A program made the position numbers and the translations under genes. Positions 1 through 48,752 of a stretch of DNA of 64,000 nt are shown piece by piece. The stretch's first letter is position 1. The number at the start of each line of letters is the position of its first letter. The DNA lies in assembly GCA_903813345.2 (NCBI GenBank), contig CAIIXF020000001.1, positions 1,798,001 through 1,862,000 on the forward strand, written 5' to 3'. Below the pieces are notes generated by a model. The model searched no databases. It saw only the letters and a program-made list of their open reading frames with translations, and had not been told where the DNA came from. This DNA comes from Owenia fusiformis. Taxonomy: Eukaryota.

Positions 1-3000
1 AAATTGTATGTATCTATTTTCCAGTAATTTCTTAATTTCTCTTGGTTTTAAGTTTAAATAGTTTGGTGAAGTACCATTGTAAATATATTTAAGTACATCA
101 TTGATGTGCGTGAGCCATGATTGTTTATTCATATCTGTCAGTTGTTTATTTACCTCAAGGGCTTCACGTAGAAGCGAGTCGGTTCCTTTATTGTTAATAT
201 GATTAAGATATTTCATTTGTTGATAAAACAAAGAAATAAATAGTGGAAACCTACCTAAATCGCCTCGTGTAGCGTCATTACTGGCCTTTCTGTTAACACC
301 GAGTATCGATTTCATAAATGATATATGAAGAGATTCAAATGTTATTCCATCATATCCCTTTTCTAATGCCCATTGTGGGTCTTTTTTAATTTTACTCGAG
401 TTTAAGATACCCGTACCCCATATATCAGATCCATAGAGGCATATGGGCTTTATGAGTTGATCAAATAGTTTTAAGCATAATGATGGTTTCATATTACCAT
501 TAGAAATTAGACTTAATAATTTAAATTTTGCCTTTTCAGCTTTGTCTTTGATATGCTGGGCTGCAGGTCTCATTGACCCACTTATGCTTAATTCCATTCC
601 CAGGTAAATGTATCGTGAAACAGATTCTATTTTGTAATTTCCTATAAAGAAGTGATTATCAATAAGTCTACCATTTTTATTCATTACCATAATTTTGGTT
701 TTATCAGTGTTGATATTTAAGTGCCATTCTTCACAGTATTTTTCTAATTTGTCCAATTTGGTTTGCATTTCATCTTTTGAGGATGCGATAATTACTAAGT
801 CATCAGCAAAAAGGAGGCTTCCAATTCGCTTATTATTTAATAATGGGTCTGTTTTGAGATCTAATGTTTTAATAATGTCATTTATATATATATTAAATAG
901 AAGAGGACTTAGGGGGTCCCCCTGTTTTATTCCCTTGTTACAGTCAAATTCATTGGTAAATAAACCCTCATTATCTAGTCTGACTCTTGCTTTTGAATGT
1001 GAATATATATGTTTTATCATTTTATAGAATAAACCGTTTACACCCGATTGCAAAAGTTTCAAAAATAATCCATCATGCCATACCGTATCGAAAGCTTTCC
1101 TCAAATCAACAAAACACATATATATATTCCCTTTTTCACTTAGTACGTATTTATCCACGAGGGTTCGTATTATGAACATGTGGTCAGTTGTTCGTGCTTT
1201 CTTTGTGAAACCGGCTTGATTTTCCGATATTATTTTTCTGTCATGTACAAAGGCGTAAAGTCTATTATACAAAATTATTGAAAATAATTTGCCAAAGCAA
1301 TCAGAAATAAAAATACCTCTGTAATTTCCAGGGTCTTTCGTCGTTCCTTTCTTAAATAACGTAACGATTGATGAAATATTCCATTTCTCAGGGAAAACTG
1401 TTTTGCTCAGTAATATGTTAAACATTTTACAGATAACATTATTTAAAACTGAGTATGACGCTTTAATCATTTCATAGCAAATGCCGTTAAAACCCGAACT
1501 CTTGTTGTTCTTTAATTGCTTAACTGCCTTGTTAACCTCGTTTTCTGTTATTCTGAAGCTAAGTTCGTCAAAATGATTGTCGTTTTCTATTGATTTAACA
1601 ATTTCGTTGACTTTTTTGTTGTTTTCGGTATTTTTATCCTTTTCAAATAATTTGGAAAAATGTTCATGCCATTTCTCTGGTGTTATATACGCGGACTTAT
1701 TGTTTCCGTCTTTTTGCCTTAGTTGCTCAAGTAGGGACCAATATTCTTTAGGGTCATTGTCATAAAGTTCTTCTAATTTATTTATCATATTAGTTTTAAA
1801 TTTCCTCTGTTTTATCTTACAGCATTTCCTATATTCCTTTAGCAACTTGAAGTAATTACCTCTAATCATATTATCATTTGGTGATTTTATTAGTTTTGCT
1901 CCAATTGACTTAACCTTTCTTTTCAGTATACTGCAATCATTATCAAACCATTTTTGAGATATCGAGCCCCCTTTCTTTTTACAGGGTAACTTTTTTCGTA
2001 GTGTTCTTTTTGCTGTGTTAATTATAATTTTTTCGAGCTTGTCAATACAATCATCAATATTATAGGTGTCGTTTAGCTCGTAATTGAGTTCATTTACATC
2101 ATTTCGTGTTTTGAAATTATTGGAGAGGTCCGTTTTAAATAGTACCTCGCGACGGGCGTCCCATTTATATTTGATTGGTTTCATTTTGATAGTATGCCCA
2201 TTGTTTTTAGTCCGATTGTTACCGTGGTCGTTTGGTATTCGTACTTGCATTAATAGAGAAATCTTGCAATGATCAGAGAGCACACAAAGGTTATCATGAA
2301 CCTTGAAGTACATAATATCTGGAAGCATATTTTCATGAATAATACAATAGTCAACTACACTGCTTCCATTCCATTTATGACAGGTGAATCTACCGGGCGA
2401 GTCCCCAAGTACTCTGCCATTTATAATTCGTAAATTAGATGACCTGCATAGGTCTAGTAGCTTCTTACCCGAAGCATCAACAACTGAATCCATGCTGGAA
2501 CGTTCATTGATGGTGACATCATTGGGACAAAGTAGAATGTTTGGGATATGATCATCATAACCGTGATTATTTTCAAAATCGCGTACTTCACCTGTTCTTG
2601 AATTAAGATCTCCCATAATCATAACATCACCTATATTAGAATATTTATTTATTTCTTTTGTCAAAATCTCGTATGGGTCATCCCCTGAGTTGAATTTACC
2701 TTTTGGGTTATAGTTTGCAGGTGAAAAATACGTTATACATAAGTACATGTCATTACTTGTATTAAAGAACTTTTTTGAAAGTTTAACCCACAGGATATCT
2801 GGTGTCTTCGTTTTGATTATTGTCGTTCCTGCTATATATGTATTTCTTATAAGTACAGCTAATCCGCCATGACGTTTCCTGCCAGATTTAGCTCTATTTA
2901 CCGAAAATGATGTGAAGCCCTTAACTCTATCAAAACATATCGGGTCTTTTTCATCACCATGTGTTTCGGTTAGACAGACTATATCATGTGTTATTAATTC

Positions 3001-3111
3001 TTTGATAAAATCATTATCGTGCAATTTGTTCCTTACTTTGCTTTCAATTCCCTGAACGTTCCAGCAAGCGATATTTAAATGTGTGGTAATGGTCGTATTT
3101 TTATATATCAT
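1..3111 (-). CDS. LINE ORF2: apurinic-type endonuclease plus reverse transcriptase (3'-partial)
   Basis: Manual translation from ATG 3111: MIYKNTTITTHLNIACWNVQGI...DIVCLTETH (endonuclease), NYRGIFISDCFGKLF, QAGF, CFVDLRKAFDTVWH, KQGDPLSPLLFNIYIND, LLFADDLV (RT), IKPICLYGSDIWG. The same frame is open at position 1 (KLLENRYIQF), which explains its absence from the ORF track. Confidence 0.95.
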   Translation of the reverse strand, partial: MIYKNTTITTHLNIACWNVQGIESKVRNKLHDNDFIKELITHDIVCLTETHGDEKDPICFDRVKGFTSFSVNRAKSGRKRHGGLAVLIRNTYIAGTTIIKTKTPDILWVKLSKKFFNTSNDMYLCITYFSPANYNPKGKFNSGDDPYEILTKEINKYSNIGDVMIMGDLNSRTGEVRDFENNHGYDDHIPNILLCPNDVTINERSSMDSVVDASGKKLLDLCRSSNLRIINGRVLGDSPGRFTCHKWNGSSVVDYCIIHENMLPDIMYFKVHDNLCVLSDHCKISLLMQVRIPNDHGNNRTKNNGHTIKMKPIKYKWDARREVLFKTDLSNNFKTRNDVNELNYELNDTYNIDDCIDKLEKIIINTAKRTLRKKLPCKKKGGSISQKWFDNDCSILKRKVKSIGAKLIKSPNDNMIRGNYFKLLKEYRKCCKIKQRKFKTNMINKLEELYDNDPKEYWSLLEQLRQKDGNNKSAYITPEKWHEHFSKLFEKDKNTENNKKVNEIVKSIENDNHFDELSFRITENEVNKAVKQLKNNKSSGFNGICYEMIKASYSVLNNVICKMFNILLSKTVFPEKWNISSIVTLFKKGTTKDPGNYRGIFISDCFGKLFSIILYNRLYAFVHDRKIISENQAGFTKKARTTDHMFIIRTLVDKYVLSEKGNIYMCFVDLRKAFDTVWHDGLFLKLLQSGVNGLFYKMIKHIYSHSKARVRLDNEGLFTNEFDCNKGIKQGDPLSPLLFNIYINDIIKTLDLKTDPLLNNKRIGSLLFADDLVIIASSKDEMQTKLDKLEKYCEEWHLNINTDKTKIMVMNKNGRLIDNHFFIGNYKIESVSRYIYLGMELSISGSMRPAAQHIKDKAEKAKFKLLSLISNGNMKPSLCLKLFDQLIKPICLYGSDIWGTGILNSSKIKKDPQWALEKGYDGITFESLHISFMKSILGVNRKASNDATRGDLGRFPLFISLFYQQMKYLNHINNKGTDSLLREALEVNKQLTDMNKQSWLTHINDVLKYIYNGTSPNYLNLKPREIKKLLENRYIQF

Positions 3112-3294
3112 TATAATACGTAAATATGTTAATTAACATTCAACATCTTACATCTTACATCCCGACATACTGAAAATATAATGTAATGATTGCATATAGT
3201 GTACTTCTGCTGATAACGTCTTAAATGCGTAGAAGTATTATACATTCTTACTTGAATTTATAATATAATTAAACGTCTTATATAACTTATTTAG

Positions 3295-3820
3295 TCGCTG
3301 ATCCGTCTAAATTATACAGTCATTTTATCTGACTGAAGTGTCTTTGAAACTGTGACCTACATGTATATCCTGGCTTTAAACCATATCTGGAGTATATTGA
3401 TAACATATCGAATACATATCGGAAACTACTACTACATTATACTACAATACAATATAGTACAACACAATACAATACTACATTATACTACAATACAATACAA
3501 TAATATCGCTGGTCTTGAGTGAGTAGAAGTTAACAATCCGTTTATGGTCGTAAATTCGCTGACCAGTCTAGAGTACCAACAGTTCCTTTATCGATAGTAT
3601 CTTTGATACTATGCCCTACATGTATGTCTTGACTTAAAACCGTAAACGGAATGAATGAGTAAAATTCTTGATTACATTCTTAGTTACCATAGTTTTACAA
3701 AATAGTGAAACATCTTAACTAAATAACGTTTAATTCGTCTAGTGTAGTCACTGATGATCAGTTTAGATTACCATCAGGCCCCGAATCTAGTATCTTTGAT
3801 ACTGTTGCCTATATCTTGGC
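3295..3820. repeat. Three degenerate repeat units plus a (TACAA)n-like tract in the LINE inter-ORF spacer
   Basis: The motif pair tcgctga..gtcta.a.ta / tctttga.act..cctacat recurs at about 3295-3385, 3556-3645 and 3749-3820. A TACAA/ACTAC microsatellite lies at about 3424-3502. Confidence 0.6.
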
Positions 3821-5901
3821 CGAGATCCATAAAAGTTATTGTTACTGGTCATGTTATTGTTGTTACGATGTGCTGGTTGGGAGAGATTACAGAACTTTCT
3901 AACCGTGCGAAGTATATTCCCGCAGAGCACTCTAGTTCCTTGTTCGTTAATATGTACGTTATCTCTGTAGAGATGGGGTTTCGGTTGGCCATTCAGTCCT
4001 AGATTGTCATTGGGGCAGCATGTGACGTTGTCGTTATCGTGGAATACTACTTCCAATTGGCTAGCTATAGATTTCTGACGGAGGTTCCATTTTGGGTTGT
4101 CTTTTCTCGGTGGTGGTAAGGACACTATAATCTTCGAGTTCGGAGCCTTTGTTTCGTTGAGTTTGACCAGTTCCTCCATCGATTTGATGATCCTTTCATC
4201 TGATTGTACTGATTTGACATCATTACTTAACACCTGGAACACTGTTATGTCTGGTTTTGAAGTTGAACCATTTACGTAATCTTTAGCCTGTTGAATTGTA
4301 TAGGCCTGTTCAACTGACACGTTAAGTCCGCTCATCCTCTTGCCATCCACATGGGACAAAATGCTTGATCCGATTAGTTTAACAGTTGGTTCCTTCTCGC
4401 TATTCTCATCGTTTGTTATTTCTATTAGATTGTTAGATTTCCTGGTTACCACTGTGTAAGGCGTGTCGTCTTTCTTCTCGTGTGCTAATTTTTTGCACTG
4501 GAGTTTGAGTTCAAAATTTTCCTCTTCCTTATCTTCTAAATACTGGTTTTTATTTTTTATTCTTTGTTGTAGCTCTTCCATTTCATTGTTATTTGATCTG
4601 ATAACTGAATCCTGTTTCTCCACCTTCTTCCTCAGTGTGTTAAGATCGTGAAGTTCATCATCTTGTTTGGATATAACTTGCATCTTTGATTGAATCTTTT
4701 CATTTAGTTCTTCGATTTCTCTGTTTTTTGAACTTATAATTGTTTGTTGGTGATCAATTTCACTTTGATACGCCTTAATTTTTCTGGCTTGGTCTGTAAC
4801 AAAATCAGCTTGTTCTTTTCTTATCTTTCTTACTCTGCGTAATTCTGTATCATGCTCGCAAGTCGATTCTTCTCCTGAGCATCGCGTTTCTTTCTGTGAT
4901 ACGTTGTTCACACTCACTTTGTCTATTAGATCGCAAACTGTATTTTCTAATTTTTCCATCTTTCTAGTTATTTTTGACAGTTCTTGCTGAAGGATGCTGG
5001 TCTCACAACTCTTTGTATTATTGGATTCGGTTTCAGACACGTTATCTGTTGAAGTTACTTTTGTTTTTTTGTCGCCATCCTTATTTTTTACAGTTAGAGT
5101 CTCGTTATTTACAATTGGAGTCTCGTTATTTTTTACAGTTGGAGTCTCGTTATTTACAATTGGAGTCTCGTTATTTACAGTTGGAGTCTCGTTATTTACA
5201 GCTGGATTTTCGTTATCGTGATTATTGTGGTTCATGATGTTATTTTCGTGAACGTTGTTATCTTCCAAATCCTCTATCTCGTTCTCGTCCTGTGCATTTT
5301 CATGGTCTGGTTGAGTACATCTTAGTTTTACATTTGTGACCTCGTTGTCGTGATAATCATTGTTTATGGTATCATTTTCTGTGCTTTTTATCTCATGATC
5401 GTTAATATCGGTTGTAGATGTTATGCTCTTTATCTGTGTATTTGACTGATCTTGAGTATTGTCCTTTTTTTCTGTGTTTGATTGCTTGATCTGATAAGTA
5501 GTGCTTTTCAAGATTGGAAACACCTGGGATTTGAATTCAGTGATGTTATTTCCTTGTATTTGAATGGTTCCAGTTGTTAAGAAAACTGTTACTTTATACT
5601 CTGATGCTTCTACACTGATCTTCTTGAGATCCTCACAGATTTCCATTTGTTTGTTGTTATAGTCTTCATAATATAGGTGTAATGTTATTATCCAGTTTAA
5701 CAACCCATCTTGATTCGTTCTGAACACACAGTATGTATCTGAGCTGCAATGTTCATTGAGAGAGTCCAGCGTTGCTAATTTAGATTTAGATCCGGTTGCT
5801 TTCTTTAGTTTACTCGGAACGTGCTTCCTGTAATGACTACCAATGGTTTGAATACGTTTCACAACTTCCTTGTTGGACATAAAGACTTTAAAATCAGACA
5901 T
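3787..5901 (-). CDS. LINE ORF1 protein (704 aa): coiled coil plus C-terminal SGNH/GDSL esterase-like domain
   Basis: Long heptad-rich E/K/Q region, then VKLIGSSIL (block I-like), FQVLSND (block III-like) and DNVHIN (DxxH). It lies directly upstream of ORF2. Confidence 0.88.
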   Translation of the reverse strand: MSDFKVFMSNKEVVKRIQTIGSHYRKHVPSKLKKATGSKSKLATLDSLNEHCSSDTYCVFRTNQDGLLNWIITLHLYYEDYNNKQMEICEDLKKISVEASEYKVTVFLTTGTIQIQGNNITEFKSQVFPILKSTTYQIKQSNTEKKDNTQDQSNTQIKSITSTTDINDHEIKSTENDTINNDYHDNEVTNVKLRCTQPDHENAQDENEIEDLEDNNVHENNIMNHNNHDNENPAVNNETPTVNNETPIVNNETPTVKNNETPIVNNETLTVKNKDGDKKTKVTSTDNVSETESNNTKSCETSILQQELSKITRKMEKLENTVCDLIDKVSVNNVSQKETRCSGEESTCEHDTELRRVRKIRKEQADFVTDQARKIKAYQSEIDHQQTIISSKNREIEELNEKIQSKMQVISKQDDELHDLNTLRKKVEKQDSVIRSNNNEMEELQQRIKNKNQYLEDKEEENFELKLQCKKLAHEKKDDTPYTVVTRKSNNLIEITNDENSEKEPTVKLIGSSILSHVDGKRMSGLNVSVEQAYTIQQAKDYVNGSTSKPDITVFQVLSNDVKSVQSDERIIKSMEELVKLNETKAPNSKIIVSLPPPRKDNPKWNLRQKSIASQLEVVFHDNDNVTCCPNDNLGLNGQPKPHLYRDNVHINEQGTRVLCGNILRTVRKFCNLSQPAHRNNNNMTSNNNFYGSRPRYRQQYQRY
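5087..5200 (-). repeat. Coding minisatellite, about 5 x 21-24 bp, encoding NNETP(T/I)V
   Basis: The unit tttacagttggagtctcgtta repeats in frame within ORF1. Confidence 0.9.
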
Positions 5902-6748
5902 CGTAGCTACCCGGTTATTTCACTAAATATGATTACTGAACGTTACACTGTATGAAACGAATTTTACACTGCACGAAACGTTGTCTTTTTAACGTAGTCA
6001 AATAGCAACGTTTTTAGAGTTAGTATATGGGGTCTATCGACCGCAGTCGCCGATAATACAATTAAAATGTCAAAACGTGATATAAACTGTTGTCGTAACC
6101 TGTTTTAGCGTTTTGTTCTTCATACAATCCTTGCGTTAAGGTAAGTAAATCCTTTGTACACTCCAATATGTCGGGATATACGATATTTGAGTATTAATTT
6201 GGAGAGCGCATTTTTAGTCTGCTTTCAATAAGACATATTTAACTCCCTTCAATAAGCATAGTCAAGCTTGTTTACCCAGAGAAATACCAATTACCAAGGT
6301 AACAGTAGCCACTGACCAATGTCCCCACCAGATTACTAATGTGGATCGAATAACATGGGAGATAAACATACTAGTAGGAAAGTGTTTATCTAAACTTTAA
6401 TTTTTATTTGTATAAACTAAAACAGTCACATTTCCAAAGAAAACTGAACTTGAACAATTTTCAAAACCACATTTCTAGATGAAAATTTATATGTAGATTT
6501 CAATGTACTTTGATTAAATATTGAAGATGAAATGACAAAAATCAAAATAATTTCTACATTCAGAAAATACTATTCAATGCCTATAACAAGAGAGCAGTGT
6601 TTTGGAGGATTTGTTAAAATCTTTATATTACGTATAATCATCTAGTACTGGCACTTTATGTCTTAAAATTCCAGCATATTAAATGATGTGCCAATATTTT
6701 TCATTAACAAATCAGAAAAAACAAGATACATGTGACAGTGATAATATA

Positions 6749-14968: not shown

Positions 14969-23321
<8,353 letters not shown>

Positions 23322-34800: not shown

Positions 34801-35714
34801 AACTAATGTGTGTGCCATAAATATGTTATAGTTTATCATTGCACAAATGTCACAATTTTCCCTTTTAATTAGTGTTATAAATAGGGGTGAGACGACAACC
34901 CAAAACCCTGAGGGTTGAGGCTTCATGTTGACCCTAATTGATTCCCGAGCTGATGAATCAAATCATTTCGGGTTGAGTAAAAATTGGAGAAAAAAGAAAT
35001 CAAATAGAATATAAGATCAATAAAATAAACATTCTACTTTGGATTGCCTTGAATATACAATGTAATATTTTTTCCATGAATTTAACATATCTGCATTGAA
35101 TTATATGTTGCCTGTACTTTTAAATGAAAGAATATACATGTAATGTTTGCAATGAAATTGGAATAAACTTGTGAATTTTTTTTTTTTCATTTCATTAGCT
35201 ATTGTTGATTAATGCATGAAAAATCATCTGAATAAATCATCATAGTCATCAAACCTGACCGAATCAGAATCTCAACCCTAATTATAAAAGTAAACTACAT
35301 GTAATCAATATGTTGAGAAAACCTATTTTCCTTAACCAAAAATTTCTCAACAGTGCTTCAAGTTTGGGACTCAATATTTTTGTGCACTAAGGCCTTTCAC
35401 AGATCTTAAAATCTGCCCCAAGCTGCAAAAATGGCACCTACCATTCTACAAACTACACATAAATGGTCAGATGGTCAGTTGTGACAAAATCCTCAACATG
35501 ATCAGTTAATCAACAGGGTTAGATTACAGTATTACTGTATTATTACCATATATTAACCAAATAAAATATTTCAAAACAACCAGGAAGTGATCACAAGAGT
35601 TACAACTAGCTATCTTGTATACTCAAGCTACATGCATGAACCTCAACCATTCTTTGGTTGTCCCCTAAAAGTTTCAAACTTACTACTCAAATATCCTGGA
35701 GCATAATATTATTA

Positions 35715-36280
35715 CCAATTCAAACATGACCGTGCTCTATTCGAATTTCTCAACCAATCAGAATGCAGCATAGCCAATATAGAACGTTCTCTAATTCTCC
35801 ATAGATGCACGACCATGCTCTATTCAATCTGCAATTTGCATTGTTTTGAGTGACGTCACATCTCAGCTGCACATCTGGGGCTCTGTCCGGGGATAGCTGT
35901 TCTTTTTTACTCCCTCCGTAACTACTGTAACTATATTTTATCAACACCCCCAGATGTTTGCATACACCGTATAAAATCTAAAACGGGGAGTAAAATAGAA
36001 CAGCCCAAACAAATTCTAAAATTTTTCCGGCCGACTTCAGGATCTTGACAGCATGCGTATTCTTCCTTCATGCCCGTTCCACAGACACGGCTTTTACTAA
36101 TTTTTATGTTTGAATCGGAATAAATAATGATAGGCCATTCAATATGGTGAAATTCAGCACTCGTTGGACAGAATGTTAGTACAAATGCACTCACCTTCGG
36201 TTCGTGCTTTGTACAACATTCTGTCCAACTCGTGCTGAATTTCACCATATTGAATGGCCTACCATTATTTATTCCTTAAT
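35715..36280. mobile_element. Non-autonomous interspersed element ending in a 159-nt hairpin (second, rearranged copy at about 48110-48720)
   Basis: Blocks shared with the 48.1-48.7 kb copy: GATAGGCCATTCAATATGGTGAAATTCAGCAC, TCTCTAATTCTCCATAGATGCA and AATTCAAACATGACC. Near-perfect inverted repeat at 36117-36275. Confidence 0.7.
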
Positions 36281-36507
36281 TCAGTCCATGCTAGTCATAT
36301 CGTATCAATAATATTGCATCAGAATACTGGAGCCAATCTCCTTAGGTCCATATGTACCTCTATGTAAGTGACCTAAGTAGCAATTTTCACTAAGACAATT
36401 AGATATATCATTGGAAATCATCTTATTCTCTTGAGAGATTATTTGATCAGAGCAATGTTCTAAGCAGCAACACCCAGAAGGCCAGAACAGCTCCATGAGG
36501 GAGGGAT

Positions 36508-37932
36508 TTACCACTTTATCCCTAGGGCATTAGTTTCTTTCTCGATGGCGTGATACTGCGTATGCAGCATCTTGAGAGCTTTATCAGAATTTCTACCCCC
36601 TAGCCACGTAGCATAGAGCTGATCCAACTCATCGCTACCACACTCCAATGTGGCATCATTTTCATCATATACACCCTCCACTTCAGCTAAAAGCTCCTTC
36701 TGGGTAACACCCTCCTCTGGCCTCAACTGTGCCCCACCATTCAGGCACCCAGAGGGACATGCCATAACTTCAACAAAATGGTAGTTACATTTTCCTCGTT
36801 TAACCTTTTGTACTATGTTTTGTATGTTACGGAAGCCGTAAGCAATGGCAAACTTCAGCTCCACTTTGCCATCAATTTCAAGTGTGACTTCTTTGAAGTC
36901 GTTGTTCCGCATTGTTTTATACTTAAGGTCTCCAGTAGTGTGCCCATAGATCTCTTTAGCTGCATGTTTCATAACATGTTCAAGGTACCCTCCGGAACCA
37001 TTATTGGGGTGGTTCATGGCGCTACCCTGTCGACCATATATGGAATCAAGAGGCGCCGGGATGACATCACCCAGTTGTATTCCTTCTCTTTTAAACATTT
37101 CATCCACCTCTAGTGTAGATAACACACAATCCACATCTCTTGTACTGTACAAGTCGTCATAGAAATCCTGACGCGATGCTTCTAGCTTTTTGTCATAACA
37201 AGGCATGACAGTCACATGATACACCTGGTCTGGTTTTCTCCCTCCTCCCAAGTGGTCCTTTGTTAGCGATCCCATTATCTGTTGCGGGGATTTTGTAGAG
37301 CTTATATAAGGCAATATATAAGAGCCATGTGTCTTTTCTGCATAGCACACCCAACCAGGGCAAGCTGATGCTAACATGGGCAGGGCAGTTTTGTCAGTTT
37401 CCTTATCTTGGTACCTCCTTATGAACTCATGTCCACTTTCAACCAGGCTTAAATCCCTAGCTTGGGCTACATCATACACAGCACTGGCACCAAGCTGCTT
37501 GAAAAAACCTGATATTTTCTCTATTGCTTCATTTGCATTTAGCTTATATTTCACTGCAAGTGAGGCTTTAGACTGAGGAGATATCGAAATAACGACATAT
37601 TTGCATTCGTCTGATTTTCCCTGTTCAAGTAAGATTTTGTTCGAGTTCAAAATCTTGTACAACTCTTCTTGGCTTTGTTGCGTGATAAGGACGCTCTCGG
37701 CAGAAGTGATACATCCGCTACAAGCTAAACAGTCATTGAGCGTAATCGTTGCTTTTTCAAGCTTCACCTCCCCGCCATCTATACCAATCTGGCTATATTC
37801 ACCATCATCCCCGATTTTAATGGCAGCTGTTTTACCAGACTTCTTAGTCACTTTAACAGGTTTTATACACTCTTGAGATGGAGTGATGAAATCATCGAGG
37901 TCTGTGAGCTGAAGAGCTCCGCTAAATGCCAT
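36508..37932 (-). CDS. CIAO3: Cytosolic iron-sulfur assembly component 3 (NARFL/IOP1/Nar1), 474 aa, intronless ORF
   Basis: [103 protein letters not shown] and a C-terminal IKW. All are Nar1/NARFL hallmarks. Confidence 0.97.
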
Positions 37933-38043
37933 CTTAATGCTGCAGTCAAAACGAACAATTTTTTATAAAATGGAGTCTGTAATTACAGTCAATTGCTGAG
38001 TGTCTCAGAAATACTGATTATGTTCCTATTAATCCTCTACTGT

Positions 38044-39396
38044 TTATTTTCTACTGCTGAAGGTTTCAAGATCAGTTACTGAAAAATATGCAAGAAAGTG
38101 TTATGATTAGAGTATGTTTATAATCAAATCTACAAATGGATTGTACCACTGACTTCTAACGAATTTTGATTTATGGTACACAAAGTCCATGTAAACAAAG
38201 TTAGATGAAGCAGAATTGTTATGTTATTACAATGTACTAAAGGTCATCGTGTTCTAAGAACAGAGCAAGGGATCTTCATTCTTCAATGTCAAAACAATTA
38301 ACTTAAAGGCCTCATGGGTAGCATAAGGACTTGATAAGTGCAGAAGCAACTGACAATGAGCAAAATGAACCATTAGTGGGAAGAATAAGAATTGCACTCA
38401 AGTTTCATTTTCATTTTTCCTAAGAACGTCTTAAAAGCACAATAATGTACAATACCATTATGTATGTACTAATAAATTGATTAAAATTCTCACTTTTCTT
38501 GTTGAGCTCCTTCAATTCTTGCATTTCACTCTTCAGCTTTAACCTCAGCACGTGTCTTAATAATTCCTCCCTTAAAGCAAAAGAATCAAGAATTAAGGGG
38601 TGGTGTCAAAATCTTTACAGTTGTGGAAGAACAAATTGAATTAAAGTCATTATCCCTAACAATACAGGTTCTATGGCAGCTATATTATAAATGTCATCTG
38701 TATAATTTATCAGTAAAATAGAATTCTCATTATCTAAAATTCTCAAACAAAAATTTTATTTTGATTCAAAAATCTGTGAAATCAAAAATGGCCACTGATA
38801 GAGTTACTGTTACTGTTTTTAAATCCAAGAGCCCACGACACCGAACAAGAAATAATTGGAGCAACTTCATGAATTTTGGCAGTAATTGAAAGATCTAAAA
38901 TATCATTTCGATCTAAATTATTTCTGGATCAGATATTTACCTATGTGATGGATCTGTTATTCCCATACGCTGGAGTTTATTATCGTTTAACCTGATTAGC
39001 ACCCGACCTGTAAAATGGATAAAAATAATTTGAAACTGAATAACTGTTATATCTCATATGTGTTCATTACAATTATAACAAATTGACAGGAATAGGATTG
39101 TTTTTAAACTGTTTCACTGGACAAAACAAAGTTGTTTTCATGTTTCTTGTCCAAATAAAATCGTCATTGATAGATAAAAATTGGGCCAAACCAATTTTTC
39201 TGAAAAAAATATAAGTTTTTTGTCATTTACCTGTTATACCGTTGTCCAAAAATAAGTTGCCGTAAAGCTCGTGATATGGTCCAGTATGTTTTTTCATCCA
39301 CTTATTGACATCTGCCGCTAACCAGAAATATAGTGGCTTGAACTTTCCCTTGGCTCGCTTGCCAGATCCCGAACTCGTGCTGTCTTTTGATTTTGA
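38044..39396 (-). CDS. ave: SAM-domain protein of the Aveugle/SAMD10/SAMD12 family (core coding exons 39396-39231, 39007-38941, 38570-38494, 38078-38044)
   Basis: Not in the ORF track. Spliced translation: SKSKDSTSSGSGKRAKGKFKPLYFWLAADVNKWMKKHTGPYHELYGNLFLDNGITGRVLIRLNDNKLQRMGITDPSHREELLRHVLRLKLKSEMQELKELNKKITDLETFSSRK*. It matches the family pattern KP..W...DV.KW..H..ITGR.L.RL.D..L.RMGI...R. Introns are GT-AG with compatible phases. The last exon is the least certain. Confidence 0.88.
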
Positions 39397-42292
39397 CTGG
39401 AAGCAAACAAAGCATGAGGATATTATATACAGGGTGACACAATAATGGAAACCATGTACAAGGCATTAACATGCAAAATGTCACCACCTGCCACTTGCTA
39501 CAGATGTCAAATGCTAACTGCCACCCAACCAAACACCATCCACAAAAAAGTTGGAGACTATAACAATATGTGATATAATAAAAATGTTCATATAGCCTTT
39601 GAGAGCTACATGAAGAGTTTCATCATCAACATTGCCTTATTAGAGGCATCTGCCGATCACAGGCATCCAGAACTCGTACCTCCTTCTTCCAAAAGAAGAA
39701 GGAAGGAACTTAGTGGATGACGTCTGGAACCCTGCGTTCGGAGAATGCATTAGAGGAAGCTCTGGAATAATATAAAAATCATAGGTGCATGGAACATCAG
39801 TGTTTCCTGCGATGAACACTGTCTCAACATATGCAAATTCAAACAGTTCCTTCCTTAAAGACAGTATCATTCTAAAATATAGGGTTGCATTTTTTGTATC
39901 ACCTTGTATAATATCAACATTATAAAGATTATTTCATAATTACATGAACAATTCTGAACACAACTTTCCAAGTCACGCAAGTTTAAATATTATGAAACTC
40001 AAACCCTTTGTTAGTCATTTGACCAAAACACCCATTGTAAACTGAAGAGCATATTTTTCTGGTAAAGGCAAGCAACTTCACAACTGTAATACTTAGAAGA
40101 TTAGATGTAACTTATTATGAAGATTAAGATTAAGTGAGAGACTTTGTTGCAGATTATTAGAGAGGAACTATTTTAGTACTCCCAAATTGCTGAGCAAAAT
40201 GGGAAAATTTGTGTCATCTGAGATGTATAATGTAACCATTATATATGAATGGGATGAAAGTAGACCCCATGGCTTTTATTCTAATGTTGCTAAAACATGA
40301 CTTGTTGTATGATAAGGGCTATATATTAAATAAAACAACTTTCATTAGTTTCAAGTTGTGCCAATTTCCTGATCCTTCATGTTCCTTGCGGCTACACGTA
40401 TTCACTGCATGTATTATAGACACTGGGTCAAGTATGCGACCAATTACTGATTCAAGTATATTAGTATTAGTAGTAAAGTATGTCCAGGATGGTGATAAAC
40501 AATAACTCAGATGCGAGTAGATAGTTTCCAGTTTCACCACCAGGTGGCTCATTCGGGTCAGATAGCATGGCAGGTATTGTAGAAAGTTCCCTTTAACTTA
40601 AATATTTATTAGTTTTAGTGGTTCAAATTTCATATCACCCTTATGTATCTAATATCTAATGCAAATTAAAATATGTCCAGGAAAAGAAAATATTATCTGT
40701 CCAATACAAGAAAAGATATTTCGAAACCATACTTCTAGATGTACTTTTACATGTAGATTTCAAATATGACATCACTTTGAATTTTGAATATTTAATGATG
40801 TAAATCAAGATTATTTCTACTCTCATCTAGTGATCTAGTCTATTCAATTTTGACCAACATGTTTTGAATTATCAACACTGTTAGCACGAAACATCCTTCT
40901 CGTTCACTGTTCTAAATTATCCCACTTCACCCTTGTTCACGTGTGCAAAATTGATTGAATAATACATCAACAGCCATGACAGAGTGAGCTTATCAACATA
41001 TTGATTTAATGCCCAAATATGGAAATGTAATGTTCCAAAATTTACTCCAGAGATGAAAAAACAATCATAGACAAGAAGCAATCTCAAGCAATCTCATTAT
41101 TTAGACATTACTTTACACCCCAACTGTGCCATAATCGATCAAACTTTCTATAATATTGTTACATTTTATGATCAACTCAGAAGATAGAATTTGATACAAG
41201 GTGCTGATCTACTACAATGGATATATTCTCATATAATATATTGGGCAATAAACTAAAGCGAATTGATCCACCTAGCAAGTCATTAGATTTAACCTTTAAG
41301 AAAAAGGATCAAATAAGCTTCAGGGGAAACATGTTTTTGTGACACATATCAACTTGTTGTAATAATACAATCTGTAAAGCAAAGCATGTGTCTCATCCTC
41401 AAGTTATTTGTTTGAACAACTTTGGATAAAATCATGAATTTATTTCATTTATAGAAACAATAATACAAAGCTGAATAATGTTCATAAATTCTTTTTATCA
41501 ACTCAATGTCTTATAGTTCATGGTCTTTACACTAAATAAAAAATAATGAATTTCGACATTTTCCTTATTTTGAAGGACAACTAGTCCTATAAACTGTAAA
41601 AGAATGAATGTTGTTTTCACATGGAAAATACAGACATTCTTCAGCTTATGTAAGCAATTCTTTTTGGCACCTTTTGGTGAAAAATTACCATATTTCAAAC
41701 CCGGATTTCAAAATTAAATTAAGGATTACACCAGGATGTTCAACAGTTTAATGGTGAACCATATTTTTTGAAAGTTTAATGATCTCTATTTGAGTGAAAG
41801 GGAAGAGTTGTGAGCAAATCTAAGTGAGGAACATCATCTTCAACTAAAGTGTAAATACTCTGAAGATTATTCGTCACATTATTTTCCAATAATAACAGAA
41901 ATCATCATCTAGTAGGCAGTAATATTCAGTCGTCACATGGTATATGCTGCACCGTAAAATTCACAAGTCAACAGACTTGCACTTGCGACAAACCTTTGAA
42001 AAAGTCGGCATTGATTTACTTGGAAGACATTGCTGGAAGGTATAAATATTGCAATCCGGATATTGCAGGATCTAAATTCAAAGCTATCATTAGAAATAAG
42101 ATATAATTCGCTTAAAGGGTGTTATTGTTATTTGAATGTAATCAATGTTTATTATGACAAAAATGAAGCCAAGATATTGTTATGATACACTCCATTATGA
42201 CATCATTAGCATTATTACTTCAAATATAATTATTCAAAAACATTTCTCCATTTGTTCATAATGTAGGATCTTTCAACTCTGACAAGTCGCCT

Positions 42293-42580
42293 GGTTGGTT
42301 GGTTGGTTGGTTGGTTGGTTGAGGTGACTCCATGTGATGCCTCAATCAAACAGCCAAATCAACTATATACCCATCATGGTAAGCCACATCATCTCTATCT
42401 CTATCCTTCTGGATGCAACAGAGAGAGATGCTATGAGTATCAGAATGCTATATACCCTCAATCCGCACTCTGAAATCACGATACCGTATCATATCGTAGC
42501 CAGAACAGTATCATATGGTACTCTTGGAGATTGGCTGTGTATCCAATTGTCTCCCAAAGGTCTTCATCAAGTACGTAAGG
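42293..42580 (-). repeat. Interspersed repeat with a (GGTT)n tract, possibly a SINE tail; related fragment at about 48310-48420
   Basis: (GGTT)7 at 42293-42320. GATGCTATGAGTATCAGAATG also occurs inverted near 48350-48370. Confidence 0.55.
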
Positions 42581-44508
42581 TGTAGCCCTTGCACCCTTTT
42601 ATGATCATTCTTTCATCTTATTTTCTTTCGAAAGTAATTTCCTCTTTTTCAGACCACCAAATGTGATAGCTTTTAATGAAGAATGATTATATTTCGAATT
42701 GAACTGTTGAGTGAGAACTCATATTATTAAGATCAATTTAGCAATTTATGGTATCAGTTAAAGAATGTCTTTCTGTCTTTTACAGATTTCGGCCAAAATA
42801 AAATCATCCATGCAAGATAGCAGTATGTAAATACCAAACTTGAGGTAGGACCTGATCCATTGGCCAAACTGTTGATTTGTTTGAAAATTGTACAGTATAT
42901 AATATTAATATATCTACACGATGCACACATTTTAGAGCAAGAAGAACAATTGCATTGTTTTTCTAGAGTTTAATATCTCGAATAGGACTACTTATGTAGG
43001 ATTTGACATTTACGACATTAAAAAGGATCAACCTTCTGGGAAAAGATCAACACCCCCGACAAGATCAATAGCAATCAACAATCAGAATGCAATTTTTACA
43101 ACTAAATAATTCATATTACATACCTTTCATTTCATATCAAGTTTCAGCAGTTATAGTTTAATATGCAGCAATTAGATAATTCATCATTGATCAATCCAAT
43201 AGAAAAAAAAACAAATAAAAATTCCTTCCATAATTATACAAATATACAAATATAGAACACTCATAAAGAGCCCCTTTATTGTTCTGATCCTTACAATAAT
43301 ATTTCTTAGGAACAATGTTTCAGAATAAACTACAAAATTACATAGGCTCAAAACCATTATTTTTACACAATACACTGTAGATGTATATAGTTTTGGAAGG
43401 ATAAAGCGCTAGGTCTTAGCCTTTATCAAATGTTCAATCATCTAAATTAATCATAACTTCATTATAGAATGTGGTTGTTAAATGTCAGTAGTAGGATTTT
43501 GAAAATGGTACCAATGAGTTGGCCCATTTGGTGAAAAGGAAAATGTCATAATTTGGAAAATATTTGGTTACGTCACCCTGAGATAGGACTTAATTTAGCA
43601 AAAATGCCAGATACCAGCAAAAATGATAAAACCTGGGAATTTGACACTGATATTTTTCAACATCATCAGTTGCAATATTTATTATATGATCTGGAAACAC
43701 TTTGAATGATATAGTGTCATCTCTTATGAAATATGATATGTTAATGATAAAATGTGAGCCCCTTAACATGGAGATGAGCATTAGTTAAGACAAATGGAAG
43801 TTCCCATTTGTCCAAAATCTCTCAATATATACAGCTTTGTGTACTTTTGAGTTCGAGTAATAAAACCATACTGTGACATCTAACCACAAAGATCAATCAA
43901 AATAACATTTTTTAAAATTAATCTTGTTACACTTCATTTTCATTTTCATTAATGTGTTCCCCTTCTTAATGGCCTTAATATTCAAGTCATGGTAGGTAGG
44001 TGTAAAATCTATTTTTGATAAAAAAAAGTGGTTTCCAGAGGCTCATCGTGTGAGCAAAAAATGACTGGATAATAAAACATATTCAAAATCACCCTGGCAA
44101 TGAAATACTATATGTGAATGTCAATTGGATAAATGACAAATCATCACAAAAAACTTTTAAATGCTTTTAAAAGCCATTATTGGTTGCATCCGCAGTCTGC
44201 GGTGCTATCTCAAGTGTGATATAAAGAACGACCCCATAAATCAGAATATGATAATTTGGGTCTCTGTTGGCAATTTCTGCTTCATCATATGCTTAAAGTC
44301 CAATTATAAACAGTTAAATATGCCTCATGAGTAAATTTGGATGATGAAATAGGTGAGATAATACTTATAATATTCTGTGCGGAATCGTCGATTGATTAAA
44401 TTAAGTCAGTAATTCATGACATTGGGTTAGTTAGTCATGGATAGTTGGTGTTAAGAATAGTACATTTAGTTATAAAGTGCAGATTAGATAATCCCAGATT
44501 TTGGACAT

Positions 44509-44933
44509 AACTAGCTTCACAGGTAATATTGACTATGTCTCCTGTGCCCCTTGGTATCAGCATATTAATTTTGAACCAAATTCATCCACTGGTACTTGAA
44601 TTATCAAAGATGATGTTTTTACAAAAAATGGCAAGCATTTTGAAGGAAGGAATCAGCACATAAAATTTGAACCAAATCCATCAACTAGTATTTGAGTTAT
44701 CAAACATTAAATTTTTTACGAAAAATGACCATTTTGAATTGAGCGGCCAGATTGAAAATTACTTCTCGAGCACAGGTCCTACACCCATAAGGTATAAGCC
44801 TATAAAATTTGAACTAAATTTGTCATTTGTATTTGAGTTATCACCCGGACAGATGGACAAACGGACAAACAAATGGATGGATGGACAGATGGCTTTCCTA
44901 TATCCCTCTCGAACTTCGTTCAGTGGAATAATA
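44509..44933 (+). mobile_element. Helentron-associated (HINE/DINE-1-like) non-autonomous element
   Basis: AACTAG start, internal repeated core (AAATTTGAAC...TATTTGAGTTATC), a GGAC/GGAT-type microsatellite and a short 3' hairpin (CGAACTTCGTTC). Confidence 0.55.
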
Positions 44934-44974
44934 ACTTTAAAAGATCCCTCACCCTGACCATAATAAGTACTTAC

Positions 44975-45424
44975 TCTAAAAGCCCCCTCCTCCTCATCGC
45001 AGTGAGTAATTTCTATATGTATAGCAGCAAGTGCTTGAGCATTCATAGGCACCTCAACACCAAGAGGTTCTGCGTTCAACTCCATTATATAATGATTCTG
45101 GCCCAAATCATCAAGACCAGGCGAGTCTAAATCATTTGTGTCATTTTGATTTTGAGCACAATCGTTTGTGTTAATATCAGCATCATGCACAACAAGTTGC
45201 CTTGTTCGAATTTCACCATTTTCGTAAAATGTACTTGCAAGGGATGCGGATAGTTTCCTTGTTACACTTGCTTTCCTTGGTATAACCTCCTCTACAATTT
45301 CCTCCTCTTCTTCTGCATTCTCCTCATTTTCCTCACTCCCCTCCTCTGAATCCTCTTCAATCCTCTCCATTGGGAGACTCTGTGAGCGAATATAATGGCT
45401 ACGGAGGACACTTATTCGATGCAT
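44975..45424 (-). CDS. Candidate alternative first coding exon (150 codons, acidic) of the SAM-domain gene
   Basis: MHRISVLRSHYIRSQSLPMERIEEDSEEGSEE...EEGAFR ends at a consensus GTAAGT donor in phase 0, compatible with the phase-0 acceptor at 39396. Confidence 0.6.
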
Positions 45425-45680
45425 TATATATATATATATCTAGCTTGCTCAATATATGATGTTGCTAATTTTACATATAGAACTTTTCTCTATGTGCTAA
45501 TTAGTCTCTTAAGATTTTGTCTAATAACCTTTTTACATAAATCAGAAAAATTACCATCCTAAACTAGTCATATATCATGTATAATGTTGCTTTGTTCCAT
45601 CAGCAGATTTACTTCAATCATTGTAACTTCAGATGTAGTTGTGGTTCAGATGTCATCCATCATTTAGAGTTCATATTTAA

Positions 45681-45745
45681 GAATGCAACAAGTACTTCCA
45701 TCAATGGCACCAACAATGCAACAAGTACTTCCATCAATGGCACCA
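45681..45745 (+). repeat. 33-bp tandem duplication
   Basis: AATGCAACAAGTACTTCCATCAATGGCACCA occurs twice in tandem. Confidence 0.85.
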
Positions 45746-46224
45746 TTCATACTTTATTTTACATCCCCGTTTGTAACAATTATTCACAAATAATCCAGTA
45801 TTGTTCTGAACAAAAACTTTATCACATTCCACTTTCTCGCTCTATAATAGTGCTAAAGGTTTAGTCAATTTTCCAATTGTTCAATAAAAGTCCTCAAGCT
45901 TTATATACTAGTACACCAGTTGTGTTGTCTCTGAGTATAATTTACTAATTGGAAGATATCCTTTGATGCTTGTCAGGCCGGATAATATTATTAGATATTC
46001 ATCATCATACTTATTTCAAATGTCAAATACACAAATGGAGTTTATTTCCAAGGAAGGAAGGCTACCTACATATTTTCATATGTTGCCTTGTCACCCCAAG
46101 CAACATTAAATGCCATCTTGAAGCCTATAGTAAGATAAATGTGTCATTTACCAACTATTAGCGAGCCAAGTAGCTGAGTGTCAAGATCCAAGGTCTTCTT
46201 GACACTTCAAGCAACAATAAATGC

Positions 46225-46945
46225 TGACATCAGAGTTGTAGTCATGTCAGTGTCACATCTGAGTTATAGTATCACTGAGTTATAAATGTCGCGTCAAAAT
46301 CATTGTCTCACAATTCAATTGATATGTCAAACCAGGATTACAGCATCACATTAGAGCTATAATGTCACATTAGAGTTATCACTAGTGTCACGTTAGAGTT
46401 ATAATGTCACATTAGAGTTATAGTGTCACATTAGAGTTATAATGTCACATTAGAGTTATAGTGTCACGTTAGAGTTATAATGTCACATCCGAGTTATAAT
46501 GTCACATTAGGGTTAATAAGTAATAGTTACACAAAGTTATAGCCCTGTTATATCAGAGTCACATCAGAGTTATAGCATCACATCAGAATTATAATGTCAC
46601 ATTAGAGTTATAGTGTCACATTAAAGTTATAATATCACATCAGAGTTATAATGTCACATTAGAGTTATAACATCACATCAGAGTTATAATGTCACATTAG
46701 AGTTATAGTTACACAAAGTTATAGCCTGGTTATATCAGAGTCACATTAGAGTTATAGCATCACATCAGATGTCACATTAGAGTTATATTGTCACATTAGA
46801 TTTTAGCATCATCACATTAGATTTTAGCATCATGTGAAAGTTAACCTTACATCAGAGTTATGGCATCACATTAAAACAAAATGTCACATCAGAGTTGAAG
46901 TGCCGCATGACAGTTACAATGTCATGTCAAAGTTATTATGTTATA
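46225..46945. repeat. Minisatellite with a 19-bp unit (consensus GAGTTATAATGTCACATTA)
   Basis: Roughly 30 or more copies, homogeneous in the centre and degenerate at the edges. Confidence 0.95.
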
Positions 46946-48752
46946 CTAGACTTGCAGATAACATTGTTTTATAAGTCATCACTTGTAGTTGATTAACCAT
47001 CTTAATTTCATCGCTAATTATTACTATCTCGCTATACCTGACTGCATATATCAAACATCTGCAGTTGATGTAACATCCAAATATTTTTGCACGTTCAAAT
47101 ATTAATAGCAACTTCTGCAACGAAGCGGTAAATTTATTGTAAAGTTAGTCTCTAGTTTGAGATTAAACTGCTGTTATCGCATCCCTATCTTCTAACAAGA
47201 AGCAGTTGCAGCCTGTCAAAAAAACTTCCGTAAAGGTCATCTTATTTCAATTTTTCAATTGATTAAAATGCTTTGCACATTTTGTTCACTCAAATGTGAT
47301 ACATTTATCTGCTAAACTCCTTTGTTAATATATCCATTTTCCTTTGGGGTACATATACAAATGTAAATCTATGGCCACTATGCAATTATCTTTCCTGGTA
47401 ACATAACTCGTCTTCTGATAAGAAACAATGATATCCAGTTTTAAGTCTTATTTTGTTAATGTTCCATCCAATGCAAGATATCATTACAGTGAATTAGCAA
47501 ATATTGAATAACAAATGTGAAGAAATAATAACTTAGTTAAGAAAGGTTAATAAACAAAATGGATAAGTATGATGACTTTCCTTCCCTTGCGATAATATTT
47601 TCTCACATTGTAATTAAAACCAAAATGAGGAGGAAGAGAACAATTTTCAAAACTGTGGTGATCATCAATACTTATAGCAGCATTAATTGGAGTGTATATT
47701 GTTTCTCATAATATTTCATTCAACTTTTATTGCTGATCTTACAAACCAAGTTAAAATTTGTAAGATATGTAATATGTAAGAATTTGTAAGAGTACTGGAT
47801 CATCATGACAACTTGTACCAGAGATAAACAAGTGGAGACAATGCTTAATAACAAGCATATGCCATCTCACAATCATCTCAGGCATGTACATGAATTTAGT
47901 TTATTTAGTACAAATATTTAGTTTATTCCATACTTGTAACACTGTAACATATCCATAAGAATAATAAATCAGGTAAATAGGATCCTATGACCCCTCTAAG
48001 TTGAACTCCAAACCCCTGTCTACCCCTTAAGGTTGCTCTACATGATGAGAAGTTTTACATAATTTTCATGATTGGAATTTTTCTTCCAATCAGATTGCAG
48101 CATAGCAATAGGAATAATTAATGATAGGCCATTCAATATGGTGAAATTCAGCACGAGTTTGACAGAATGTCGCACAAAGAATAGAATTTCAACATATTGA
48201 ATGGCCTAATTTACTCCAATTCAAACATGAAAAATGAAAACATTGTTCAGAGAATCGGTGATTGGGGCTCCATAAAATAACCAAACTTGCTGTTATTTTC
48301 GCCATTCCTTGGTGTGACCTCACAACACAACACAATACATAGATAACCATTCTGATACTCATAGCATCTTTCTCAGGGCTGAGAAGATTTGAGATGGCAT
48401 GGTTTATCATGATGATAGATACCCGGATGAGCACGGAATAGAGCACGGTCATGCATCTATGGAGAATTAGAGAATGTTGTATATTAAATATTGCAGTCTG
48501 ATTGGTTGAGAAATACAATTAGAGCATGGTCATGTTTGAATTCTCAATAGATGTTCATTATGCAAACTGCACCCATGAATCTACACTCATTAGACAGACT
48601 GTCGTCAGTGCAAATGCACTTACCTTCAGCCAAGCTTTGTACGACGTTCTGTCTTATCCCAGTTGAATTTCAACATTTTAAATGGCTTTTCATTTTTCAT
48701 TCCTTAATATATTTCTCATTTCTATTTGAATATTCACATATTAGGGTAGAAT

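Follow-up and report, generated by a model that had tools for sequence, protein, structure and literature searches.

Co-transcription of predicted SAM-domain and intronless CIAO3 genes in Owenia fusiformis

The closest described counterpart of the locus reported here is lemming of Drosophila (lmgA/Apc11 and lmgB), in which a spacer of 92 nucleotides (nt) separates two open reading frames (ORFs) and the dicistronic RNA is the main product, accompanied by minor monocistronic forms and ends (PMC3372440; sources cited by PMC number are represented by excerpts, and statements resting on them extend as far as those excerpts). A comparable arrangement is found in a stretch of 64,000 nt from Owenia fusiformis (contig CAIIXF020000001.1, positions 1,798,001 to 1,862,000; hereafter the window). 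On its minus strand, a predicted Aveugle/SAMD12-like gene (hereafter the SAM gene) is followed by a 111-nt spacer and then by the intronless ORF of a predicted CIAO3, an order that is base-exact in the sequence. RNA sequencing (RNA-seq) data revealed that the two genes are co-transcribed and that the spacer is retained in the spliced RNA.

The locus resembles lemming in several respects. In both cases a single mRNA carries two unrelated ORFs separated by roughly 100 nt (92 in lemming and 111 here), the dicistronic RNA is dominant, the small upstream ORF contains in-frame AUGs, no internal ribosome entry site (IRES) is evident in the spacer as far as the excerpt describes it, and minor monocistronic forms are possible (PMC3372440). 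The two loci differ in that lemming is wholly intronless, whereas the upstream gene is spliced here. In addition, the essential gene of lemming is the upstream one, and its downstream ORF is described in the excerpt as dispensable and not detectably translated (PMC3372440), whereas the downstream ORF here is a predicted conserved factor of an essential pathway that appears to be under purifying selection. In the human RPP14/HsHTD2 pair, the RPP14 ORF of 124 amino acids (aa) precedes a larger enzyme ORF located in its 3' untranslated region (UTR), and the likeness to our locus lies in a short upstream ORF whose would-be 3' UTR holds a larger, conserved ORF for an enzyme of unrelated function (PMC4705651). 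The translation mechanism of this pair is given in the excerpt as uninvestigated, with leaky scanning or reinitiation thought likely, and SNURF-SNRPN and GDF1/CERS1 are mentioned as further bicistronic cases (PMC4705651). These are vertebrate genes, whereas our locus has a far longer downstream ORF (474 aa) and an arrangement known from one genome.

For Drosophila stoned and snapin (Wall et al. 2005, cited in PMC3372440), the second cistron of an animal dicistronic mRNA is translated, and in-frame AUGs in the first cistron are reported to attenuate the second. Efficient translation of the second cistron there requires a first cistron devoid of in-frame AUGs (PMC3372440), whereas the SAM ORF has at least three. 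A different type of gene pair is the operon resolved by spliced-leader (SL) trans-splicing, a process for which the excerpt names nematodes, tunicates, rotifers, and chaetognaths (PMC12460157). SL operons of nematodes and chaetognaths share with our locus two genes on the same strand about 100 nt apart, a hexamer resembling a poly(A) signal and an acceptor-like site between them, and a housekeeping gene downstream (PMC12460157). They differ from it in that the spacer here stays in the mature RNA with no 3' end after the hexamer, and in that neither a leader nor a joint appears at the acceptor-like site among the joints and ends listed. The locus appears to be an uncommon but known type of two-gene mRNA rather than a trans-spliced operon of the nematode style.

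Co-transcription of the two genes

Two stranded RNA-seq runs with the same species label (X18 and X20, 151-nt reads) were mapped on positions 35000-47000 of the window. Paired figures below refer to X18 and then X20, and sums of the form a+b are counts as given for the X20 joints. The joints listed are 15 of 78, and the listed loose ends from raw reads are those with at least 135 reads, a further 788 loose ends falling outside the list. Two contig sets, X1 and X2, are DNA and uninformative on RNA (30/30 and 25/30 bins covered, with a 2045-nt contig spanning the intron).

All gene reads of X18 and X20 belonged to the first-mate-on-plus class, corresponding to minus-sense RNA. Three joints with GT..AG ends on the minus strand connect the four known exons of the SAM gene (Table 1). 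The RNA depth was 0 at all nine listed places in the last SAM intron (38161-38427) in both runs, indicating that unspliced precursor is negligible. At 38028 and 37984 in the spacer, the depth was 50 at both places in X18 and 31 and 29, respectively, in X20, which equals the SAM junction counts (46 and 36), and no drop occurred past the AATAAA hexamer. Depths calculated from bin means, with introns taken as empty, were 44, 44, and 59 (X18) and 43, 36, and 40 (X20) for the SAM exons, and 53 (X18) and 36 (X20) for the stretch 37807-38078. The bins of the CIAO3 ORF gave 62, 60, and 74 (X18) and 63, 58, and 52 (X20), the depth along the ORF ranging over 48-85 and 42-65, respectively. Minus-sense reads cover the SAM exons, the spacer, and CIAO3 without a break, which, together with the empty introns, places both ORFs on one mature spliced transcript, and both ORFs are intact. 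With about even confidence, we consider that the SAM gene and CIAO3 are transcribed as a single unit, yielding a spliced dicistronic mRNA as the main mature product.

An earlier reading of the same DNA without RNA data (the sequence-only reading) had described a stop codon within AATAAA, an ATG-free spacer of 111 nt, an acceptor-like site 7 nt before the CIAO3 ATG, and an intronless ORF, all of which we recovered at the same minus-strand positions. Its view that the spacing leaves CIAO3 little space for a separate promoter, and that CIAO3 is transcribed together with the SAM gene, agrees with a spacer that is covered like the flanking exons and with an empty last intron. The exon at 38078, on whose use by the SAM gene that proposal had been made to depend beforehand, is indeed used (joint 38078>38494, 46 and 35+1 reads). 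Of the three mechanisms that it offered for CIAO3, a dicistronic mRNA was seen, while SL trans-splicing and cis-splicing from an upstream exon were not seen among the listed joints. It had further suggested that the arrangement couples a Ras/MAPK scaffold partner to cytosolic iron-sulphur (Fe-S) assembly; nothing supports this beyond the co-transcription itself.

The upstream gene is predicted from its exon translations to encode a small protein with a single SAM domain of the Aveugle/SAMD12/SAMD10 type, a group characterised by binding to the SAM domain of CNK and by acting in Ras/MAPK signalling. The four exons encode 114 codons as far as the gene is known, ending in ...TDLETFSSRK before the stop. 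When scored exon by exon rather than on the joined protein, the translation of 39232-39396 matched residues 18-55 of Drosophila Aveugle (3bs5_A; expectation value, E, 7.5e-4), and that of 38941-39007 matched residues 57-74 of Aveugle (E 0.02), SAMD12 (9k1l_B, E 0.1), and the Pfam family SAM_2 (E 0.013). The two consecutive exons (39231-39396 and 38941-39007) are collinear with Aveugle. The third exon (38494-38570) yielded no SAM match in the PDB search. The SAM exons had no match among longer proteins and no usable match in the Atlas, and the Pfam searches with single exons gave only the SAM_2 match. Both of the RNA variants listed for the exon 39231-39396 are synonymous.

The 5' end of the SAM gene lies further upstream. 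Upstream of 39396, the reading frame reaches a stop without passing an ATG; a start of the ORF there without splicing was therefore rejected, and at least one further 5' exon must exist. The exon 39231-39396 is covered by 23-39 reads, and no listed joint enters 39396 in the stretch 35000-47000. The cis donor feeding it lies outside this stretch, none being visible within 7.6 kb, and a donor beyond 47000 leaves no visible joint. One candidate for the first exon was an ORF of 226 aa at 44759-45439 on the minus strand, which carries an acidic run near its N-terminus, has a phase-0 donor (GTAAGT), belongs to no Pfam family, and could conceivably be spliced in frame to 39396. Although its phase fits, the candidate was rejected since the RNA depth in the bin 45025-45425 was 0 in both runs; it is perhaps an exon belonging to another gene, either unexpressed or tissue-specific. 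No CpG or GC island stood out as a promoter mark in 39000-64000.

The downstream ORF is predicted to be a complete CIAO3 (also NARFL or Nar1), a hydrogenase-like protein of cytosolic Fe-S assembly. It matches Fe_hyd_lg_C (PF02906, 4e-73) over the whole profile (1-245 of 245) and Fe_hyd_SSU (PF02256, 4.3e-6). Among the best 120 of 5662 matches, animal CIAO3 proteins are 60-68% identical to it over 100% of the length, and the closest named one is that of Lingula anatina (68%). In an alignment of 13 sequences including the window protein, every invariant column is kept, and C22, C68, C71, C74, C191, C245, C392, C396, and W474 are among these columns. The eight cysteines correspond to the two conserved sets of four that serve the two Fe-S clusters of CIAO3/Nar1, and W474 to its C-terminal tryptophan. 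A quick single-gene tree, in which the Lingula node is not starred, placed the protein as sister to Lingula with a Shimodaira-Hasegawa-like approximate likelihood ratio (SH-aLRT) support of 91 and a branch of 0.69 versus 0.19 for Lingula. Among the listed RNA variants, beyond which 303 more exist, five of the seven in the CIAO3 ORF are synonymous, the remaining pair being conservative replacements (I>T and L>I). This synonymous bias makes both ORFs look constrained. A literature search for a connection of NARFL, CIAO3, or IOP1 to retrogenes or to bicistronic or dicistronic mRNAs found no relevant paper.

The spacer and the acceptor-like site

The stop codon of the SAM ORF (TAA, 38046-38044) is embedded in AATAAA (38048-38043) on the minus strand. 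At the other end of the spacer, the motif ...TTGTTCGTTTTGACTGCAG ends at 37940, so that a would-be exon would start at 37939, 7 nt upstream of the CIAO3 ATG at 37932. In the SL operons of nematodes, the intercistronic stretch is removed from the mature mRNAs. The sequence-only reading had likened the locus to such an operon on account of the poly(A) signal and the unpaired acceptor. On that view, cleavage and polyadenylation of the precursor would follow AATAAA, and 37939 would receive a spliced leader. The common strand, the 111-nt spacing, the AATAAA on the stop, and the YAG (Y, pyrimidine) 7 nt before the AUG all fit this explanation, and spacings below 250 base pairs (bp) define operons in SL-using animals (PMC12460157). 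The exon at 39396 also has no visible cis donor within 7.6 kb, and a minority form could sit among loose ends beyond those listed. The RNA evidence is opposed to it, however: spliced RNA contains the spacer as abundantly as the SAM exons, the depth does not fall past AATAAA, and the last intron is at 0. No joint into 37939 was found among the 15 listed of the 78 joints and no loose end at 37939 among those listed, and no position within the gene pair is listed as one at which the ends of many molecules accumulate. A 3' end between the cistrons near 38025, which the operon analogy had led one to look for, is likewise not apparent, given the steady depth at 38028 and 37984 and the absence of an end pile among those listed.

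The motifs themselves were compared with chance. AATAAA occurs at 1.2-1.4 per kb per strand within the window, and about 3.7% of TAA stops are expected inside AATAAA by composition. No ATG was present in 13.6% of 20,000 random 111-nt draws of intron-like composition. YAG sites with a pyrimidine content at least equal to that of the 37939 site occur about five times per kb per strand. With 11 pyrimidines of 18, the 37939 site is weaker than all four acceptors of the SAM gene (14, 14, 15, and 14 of 18), of which three have matching RNA joints, the fourth (39396) being taken from the sequence. The features of the spacer region hardly exceed chance, each motif being common in AT-rich DNA, and this frequency also speaks against the operon. 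The CIAO3 protein groups with a brachiopod (SH-aLRT 91), and the literature search gave no record of SL trans-splicing for brachiopods, bryozoans, or phoronids. Finally, the only abundant constant RNA segment that was seen, 39458-39489, belongs to a repeat of very high DNA copy number that is constant over more than 88 nt. It was rejected as a leader since the constant sequence continues for at least 56 nt further and the DNA depth is about 5e5 versus about 15. We regard an SL trans-spliced operon as very improbable.

The spacer (38043-37933) contains four extra stops in the frame shared by both ORFs, and its folding z-score is -0.08. It is polymorphic in the RNA-seq animals, with an AC insertion behind 37984 in 8/29 reads of X20 and 0/50 of X18, and an A>C change at 38028 in 12/50 reads of X18 and 17/31 of X20. 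These variants indicate that the spacer sequence is not tightly constrained.

Predicted translation and likely origin of the CIAO3 reading frame

In the reading that we prefer, CIAO3 would have come to occupy the 3' UTR of the SAM gene, or the sequence immediately behind it, as an intron-free copy produced by retroposition or by complete intron loss, and would then have been maintained under purifying selection. The absence of introns from CIAO3, as against at least four in its 114-codon neighbour, suggests a processed copy or complete intron loss; it is this intronlessness that points to retroposition. The SAM ORF would be spliced from at least five exons, including one upstream exon still to be placed. 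The last exon, from 38078, would carry 11 SAM codons and the stop and would then continue uncleaved through the spacer, the CIAO3 ORF, and a long 3' UTR. We infer that CIAO3 is translated from this dicistronic RNA, with ribosomes either reinitiating once the upstream ORF has been translated or entering internally at the spacer, which is AUG-free and unstructured. A fusion by stop read-through was rejected, because four further stops lie between the ORFs although they share a frame. Leaky scanning to CIAO3 is unlikely, because the known part of the SAM ORF contains three in-frame AUGs and one out-of-frame AUG. Three routes are left: reinitiation onto the CIAO3 AUG, whose context is strong (A at -3 and G at +4), entry of ribosomes at an internal site, and a minor mRNA that carries CIAO3 alone.

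Several observations weigh against the dicistronic reading. The depth of CIAO3 is higher than that of the SAM exons and the spacer, about 1.3-fold in X18 and 1.5-2-fold in X20, and the excess could be due to 3' bias or to a second CIAO3 RNA that has no spacer. The data are short reads, which provide depths and joints rather than single molecules spanning both ORFs, and a minority leader or a far-upstream exon joined at 37939 would escape the joints and ends listed. The AUGs in the known part of the upstream ORF, three in frame and one out of frame, stand in the way of the second cistron, and the presence of at least three in-frame AUGs makes the route of stoned and snapin unlikely. The spacer shows no standout structure (z -0.08). 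With respect to the proposed origin, no flanking target-site duplication (direct repeat of at least 14 nt) was found around the CIAO3 block, and reading the sequence showed no clear poly(A) remnant, the sole downstream A-tract being an A12 at 35174-35185.

The depth excess bears on another explanation, in which the bulk RNA is dicistronic but a minor monocistronic mRNA serves as the source of the CIAO3 protein. Such an mRNA could arise by cis-splicing of a shared upstream first SAM exon directly to 37939, or from a weak internal start site in exon 4 or in the spacer. A first exon of phase 0 joined at 37939 would read ...CAT TAA, with a stop 1 nt before the CIAO3 AUG, which is a layout of a short upstream ORF favouring reinitiation. 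The step in depth is clearest in X20 (29-31 in the spacer and 52-63 in the ORF), and there is almost none in X18 (50 in the spacer and 53-62 in the ORF). Since the donor for 39396 lies outside 35000-47000, the same exon spliced into 37939 would equally escape the listed joints; nevertheless, neither such a joint nor a pile of starts is among those listed. Drosophila lemming has minor monocistronic forms alongside its dicistronic RNA (PMC3372440). On the other hand, the 37939 site is weaker than the four SAM acceptors and of a kind that occurs at chance frequency, and the zero depth in the last intron excludes unspliced starts upstream of 38161. We consider a minor monocistronic source of the protein to be possible but rather unlikely.

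The intronlessness of CIAO3 next to a small gene with at least four introns might also mean that the ORF is an untranslated young retrocopy carried in the 3' UTR of the SAM gene, with a working intron-bearing CIAO3 elsewhere in the genome. The long terminal branch (0.69 versus 0.19 for Lingula) and the normally inefficient translation of second cistrons would be in line with this. However, the ORF is full-length and keeps every invariant residue, including the eight cysteines and the C-terminal tryptophan. Its listed variants are mostly synonymous (five of seven) with two conservative changes (I>T and L>I), and neither of the hallmarks of a young retrocopy, a target-site duplication and a poly(A) remnant, was found. 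A weaker argument is that no second protein more than 68% identical appears among the best 120 of the 5662 matches, as the collection may not hold the whole protein set of the genome. We find an untranslated passenger copy very doubtful.

Flanking sequence and meaning of the locus

The features of the gene pair and of its 3' UTR are collected in Table 1.

Table 1. Features of the SAM gene, the spacer, CIAO3, and the 3' UTR (positions in the window)
Feature	Positions	Strand	Details
SAM gene, first known coding exon	39231..39396	-	55 codons + 1 nt; acceptor AG 39398-39397; donor joint 39005>39229, cut +2
SAM gene, exon 2 (SAM domain, predicted)	38941..39007	-	67 nt; joints 39005>39229 and 38569>38940
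SAM gene, exon 3	38494..38570	-	77 nt; joints 38569>38940 and 38078>38494; CT..AC ends = GT..AG on minus
SAM ORF, last 11 codons + TAA; start of the long terminal exon also bearing CIAO3	38044..38078	-	joint 38078>38494
Joint	38078>38494	-	GT..AG; 46 reads (X18), 35+1 (X20)
Joint	38569>38940	-	GT..AG; 38 reads (X18), 32+2 (X20)
Joint	39005>39229	-	GT..AG; 24 reads (X18), 22+1 (X20)
AATAAA over the SAM stop	38043..38048	-	from sequence; use as poly(A) signal not seen (RNA depth holds downstream)
Intercistronic spacer, kept in mature RNA	37933..38043	-	111 nt; 0 ATG; 32% GC; exon-level RNA depth
Acceptor-like motif	37940..37957	-	11 pyrimidines of 18; no use seen in RNA
CIAO3/NARFL/Nar1 (predicted), second cistron	36508..37932	-	474 aa; 1425 nt; no intron, uninterrupted
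Proximal 3' UTR of the dicistronic RNA	36278..36507	-	depth about 56 and 35 in bin 36203-36603; 60-61 at 36337 and 36384 (X18)
High-copy element in the reference 3' UTR	35717..36277		561 bp; RNA joint 35716>36278, inverted arms, DNA depth
Distal 3' UTR	35000..35716	-	depth drops to about 8 by 35000-35400; 19 and 25 reads run over the stretch ends

The 3' UTR of the reference is interrupted by an element of 561 bp. The RNA joint 35716>36278 skips exactly 561 nt (18 and 10 reads) and has the non-splice ends AA..TT with six shared letters. Inverted arms of 61 nt (36117-36177 and 36215-36275) are 95% complementary, the DNA depth of the element is thousands of times the baseline, and both of its strands are transcribed. 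The exact skip with non-splice ends points to a polymorphic insertion of a mobile element of very high copy number, which is missing from the transcripts of at least part of the RNA-seq animals. An Rfam search on 35000-47000 gave only a sub-threshold mir-266 match (27 bits versus a gathering threshold of 80), located in the inverted arms of this element.

Two further repeats lie upstream of the SAM exons. The repeat at 39458-39571 (core 39458-39489) is located in the intron just upstream of the exon 39231-39396. Its word depth in DNA reaches about 5e5 in X1 and 3e5 in X2, where the baseline is about 15, its RNA depth at 39473 is 2756 (X18) and 2063 (X20), about 10:1 minus-sense, and one of its flanks is heterogeneous while the other is semi-constant. 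The segment 44560-44960 is a high-copy repeat (DNA depth about 1e4) with an internal tandem structure and RNA joints that go back (44678>44590 and 44703>44662).

Elsewhere in the window, a multi-exon TGS1-like gene occupies 15464-20978 on the plus strand. Its exon 20646-20978 matches the RNA cap guanine-N2 methyltransferase family (PF09445, 7.4e-22), and its 550-codon exon 15955-17607 belongs to no Pfam family. A retroelement ORF at 1-3132 on the minus strand contains endonuclease (PF03372) and reverse transcriptase (PF00078) domains, with best relatives 36-40% identical (a long interspersed nuclear element, LINE). Two other retroelement ORFs, of 710 aa at 3787-5919 (minus) and 395 aa at 21558-22745 (plus), have no Pfam family. 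No tRNA genes were found in the window.

For genome annotation, the locus indicates that an acceptor-like site about 100 nt from a poly(A) hexamer is insufficient to call an SL operon in AT-rich genomes. A bolder proposal, which we regard as improbable, is that the animal's only CIAO3 is made from this second cistron, through efficient reinitiation after a long ORF or through cellular IRES-like entry in the unstructured 111-nt spacer. If this CIAO3 were the only one, the ribosome would have to pass an ORF of at least 115 codons with in-frame AUGs, of which leaky scanning is incapable. In a still bolder variant, a leader is present at 37939 and 39396; if reads at these positions carried a spliced leader, this would be the first SL trans-splicing in a brachiopod-related lineage.

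Natural dicistronic mRNAs with two long, conserved, and unrelated ORFs are rare in animals, and the translation of their second ORF is mostly unresolved. The present locus combines RNA evidence of a spliced dicistronic transcript, a downstream ORF of an essential pathway that is presumably translated, and upstream in-frame AUGs that speak against leaky scanning. It would offer a clean test of reinitiation or internal entry in a natural setting, and it would show that a retrocopy can survive by borrowing the promoter of its host gene.

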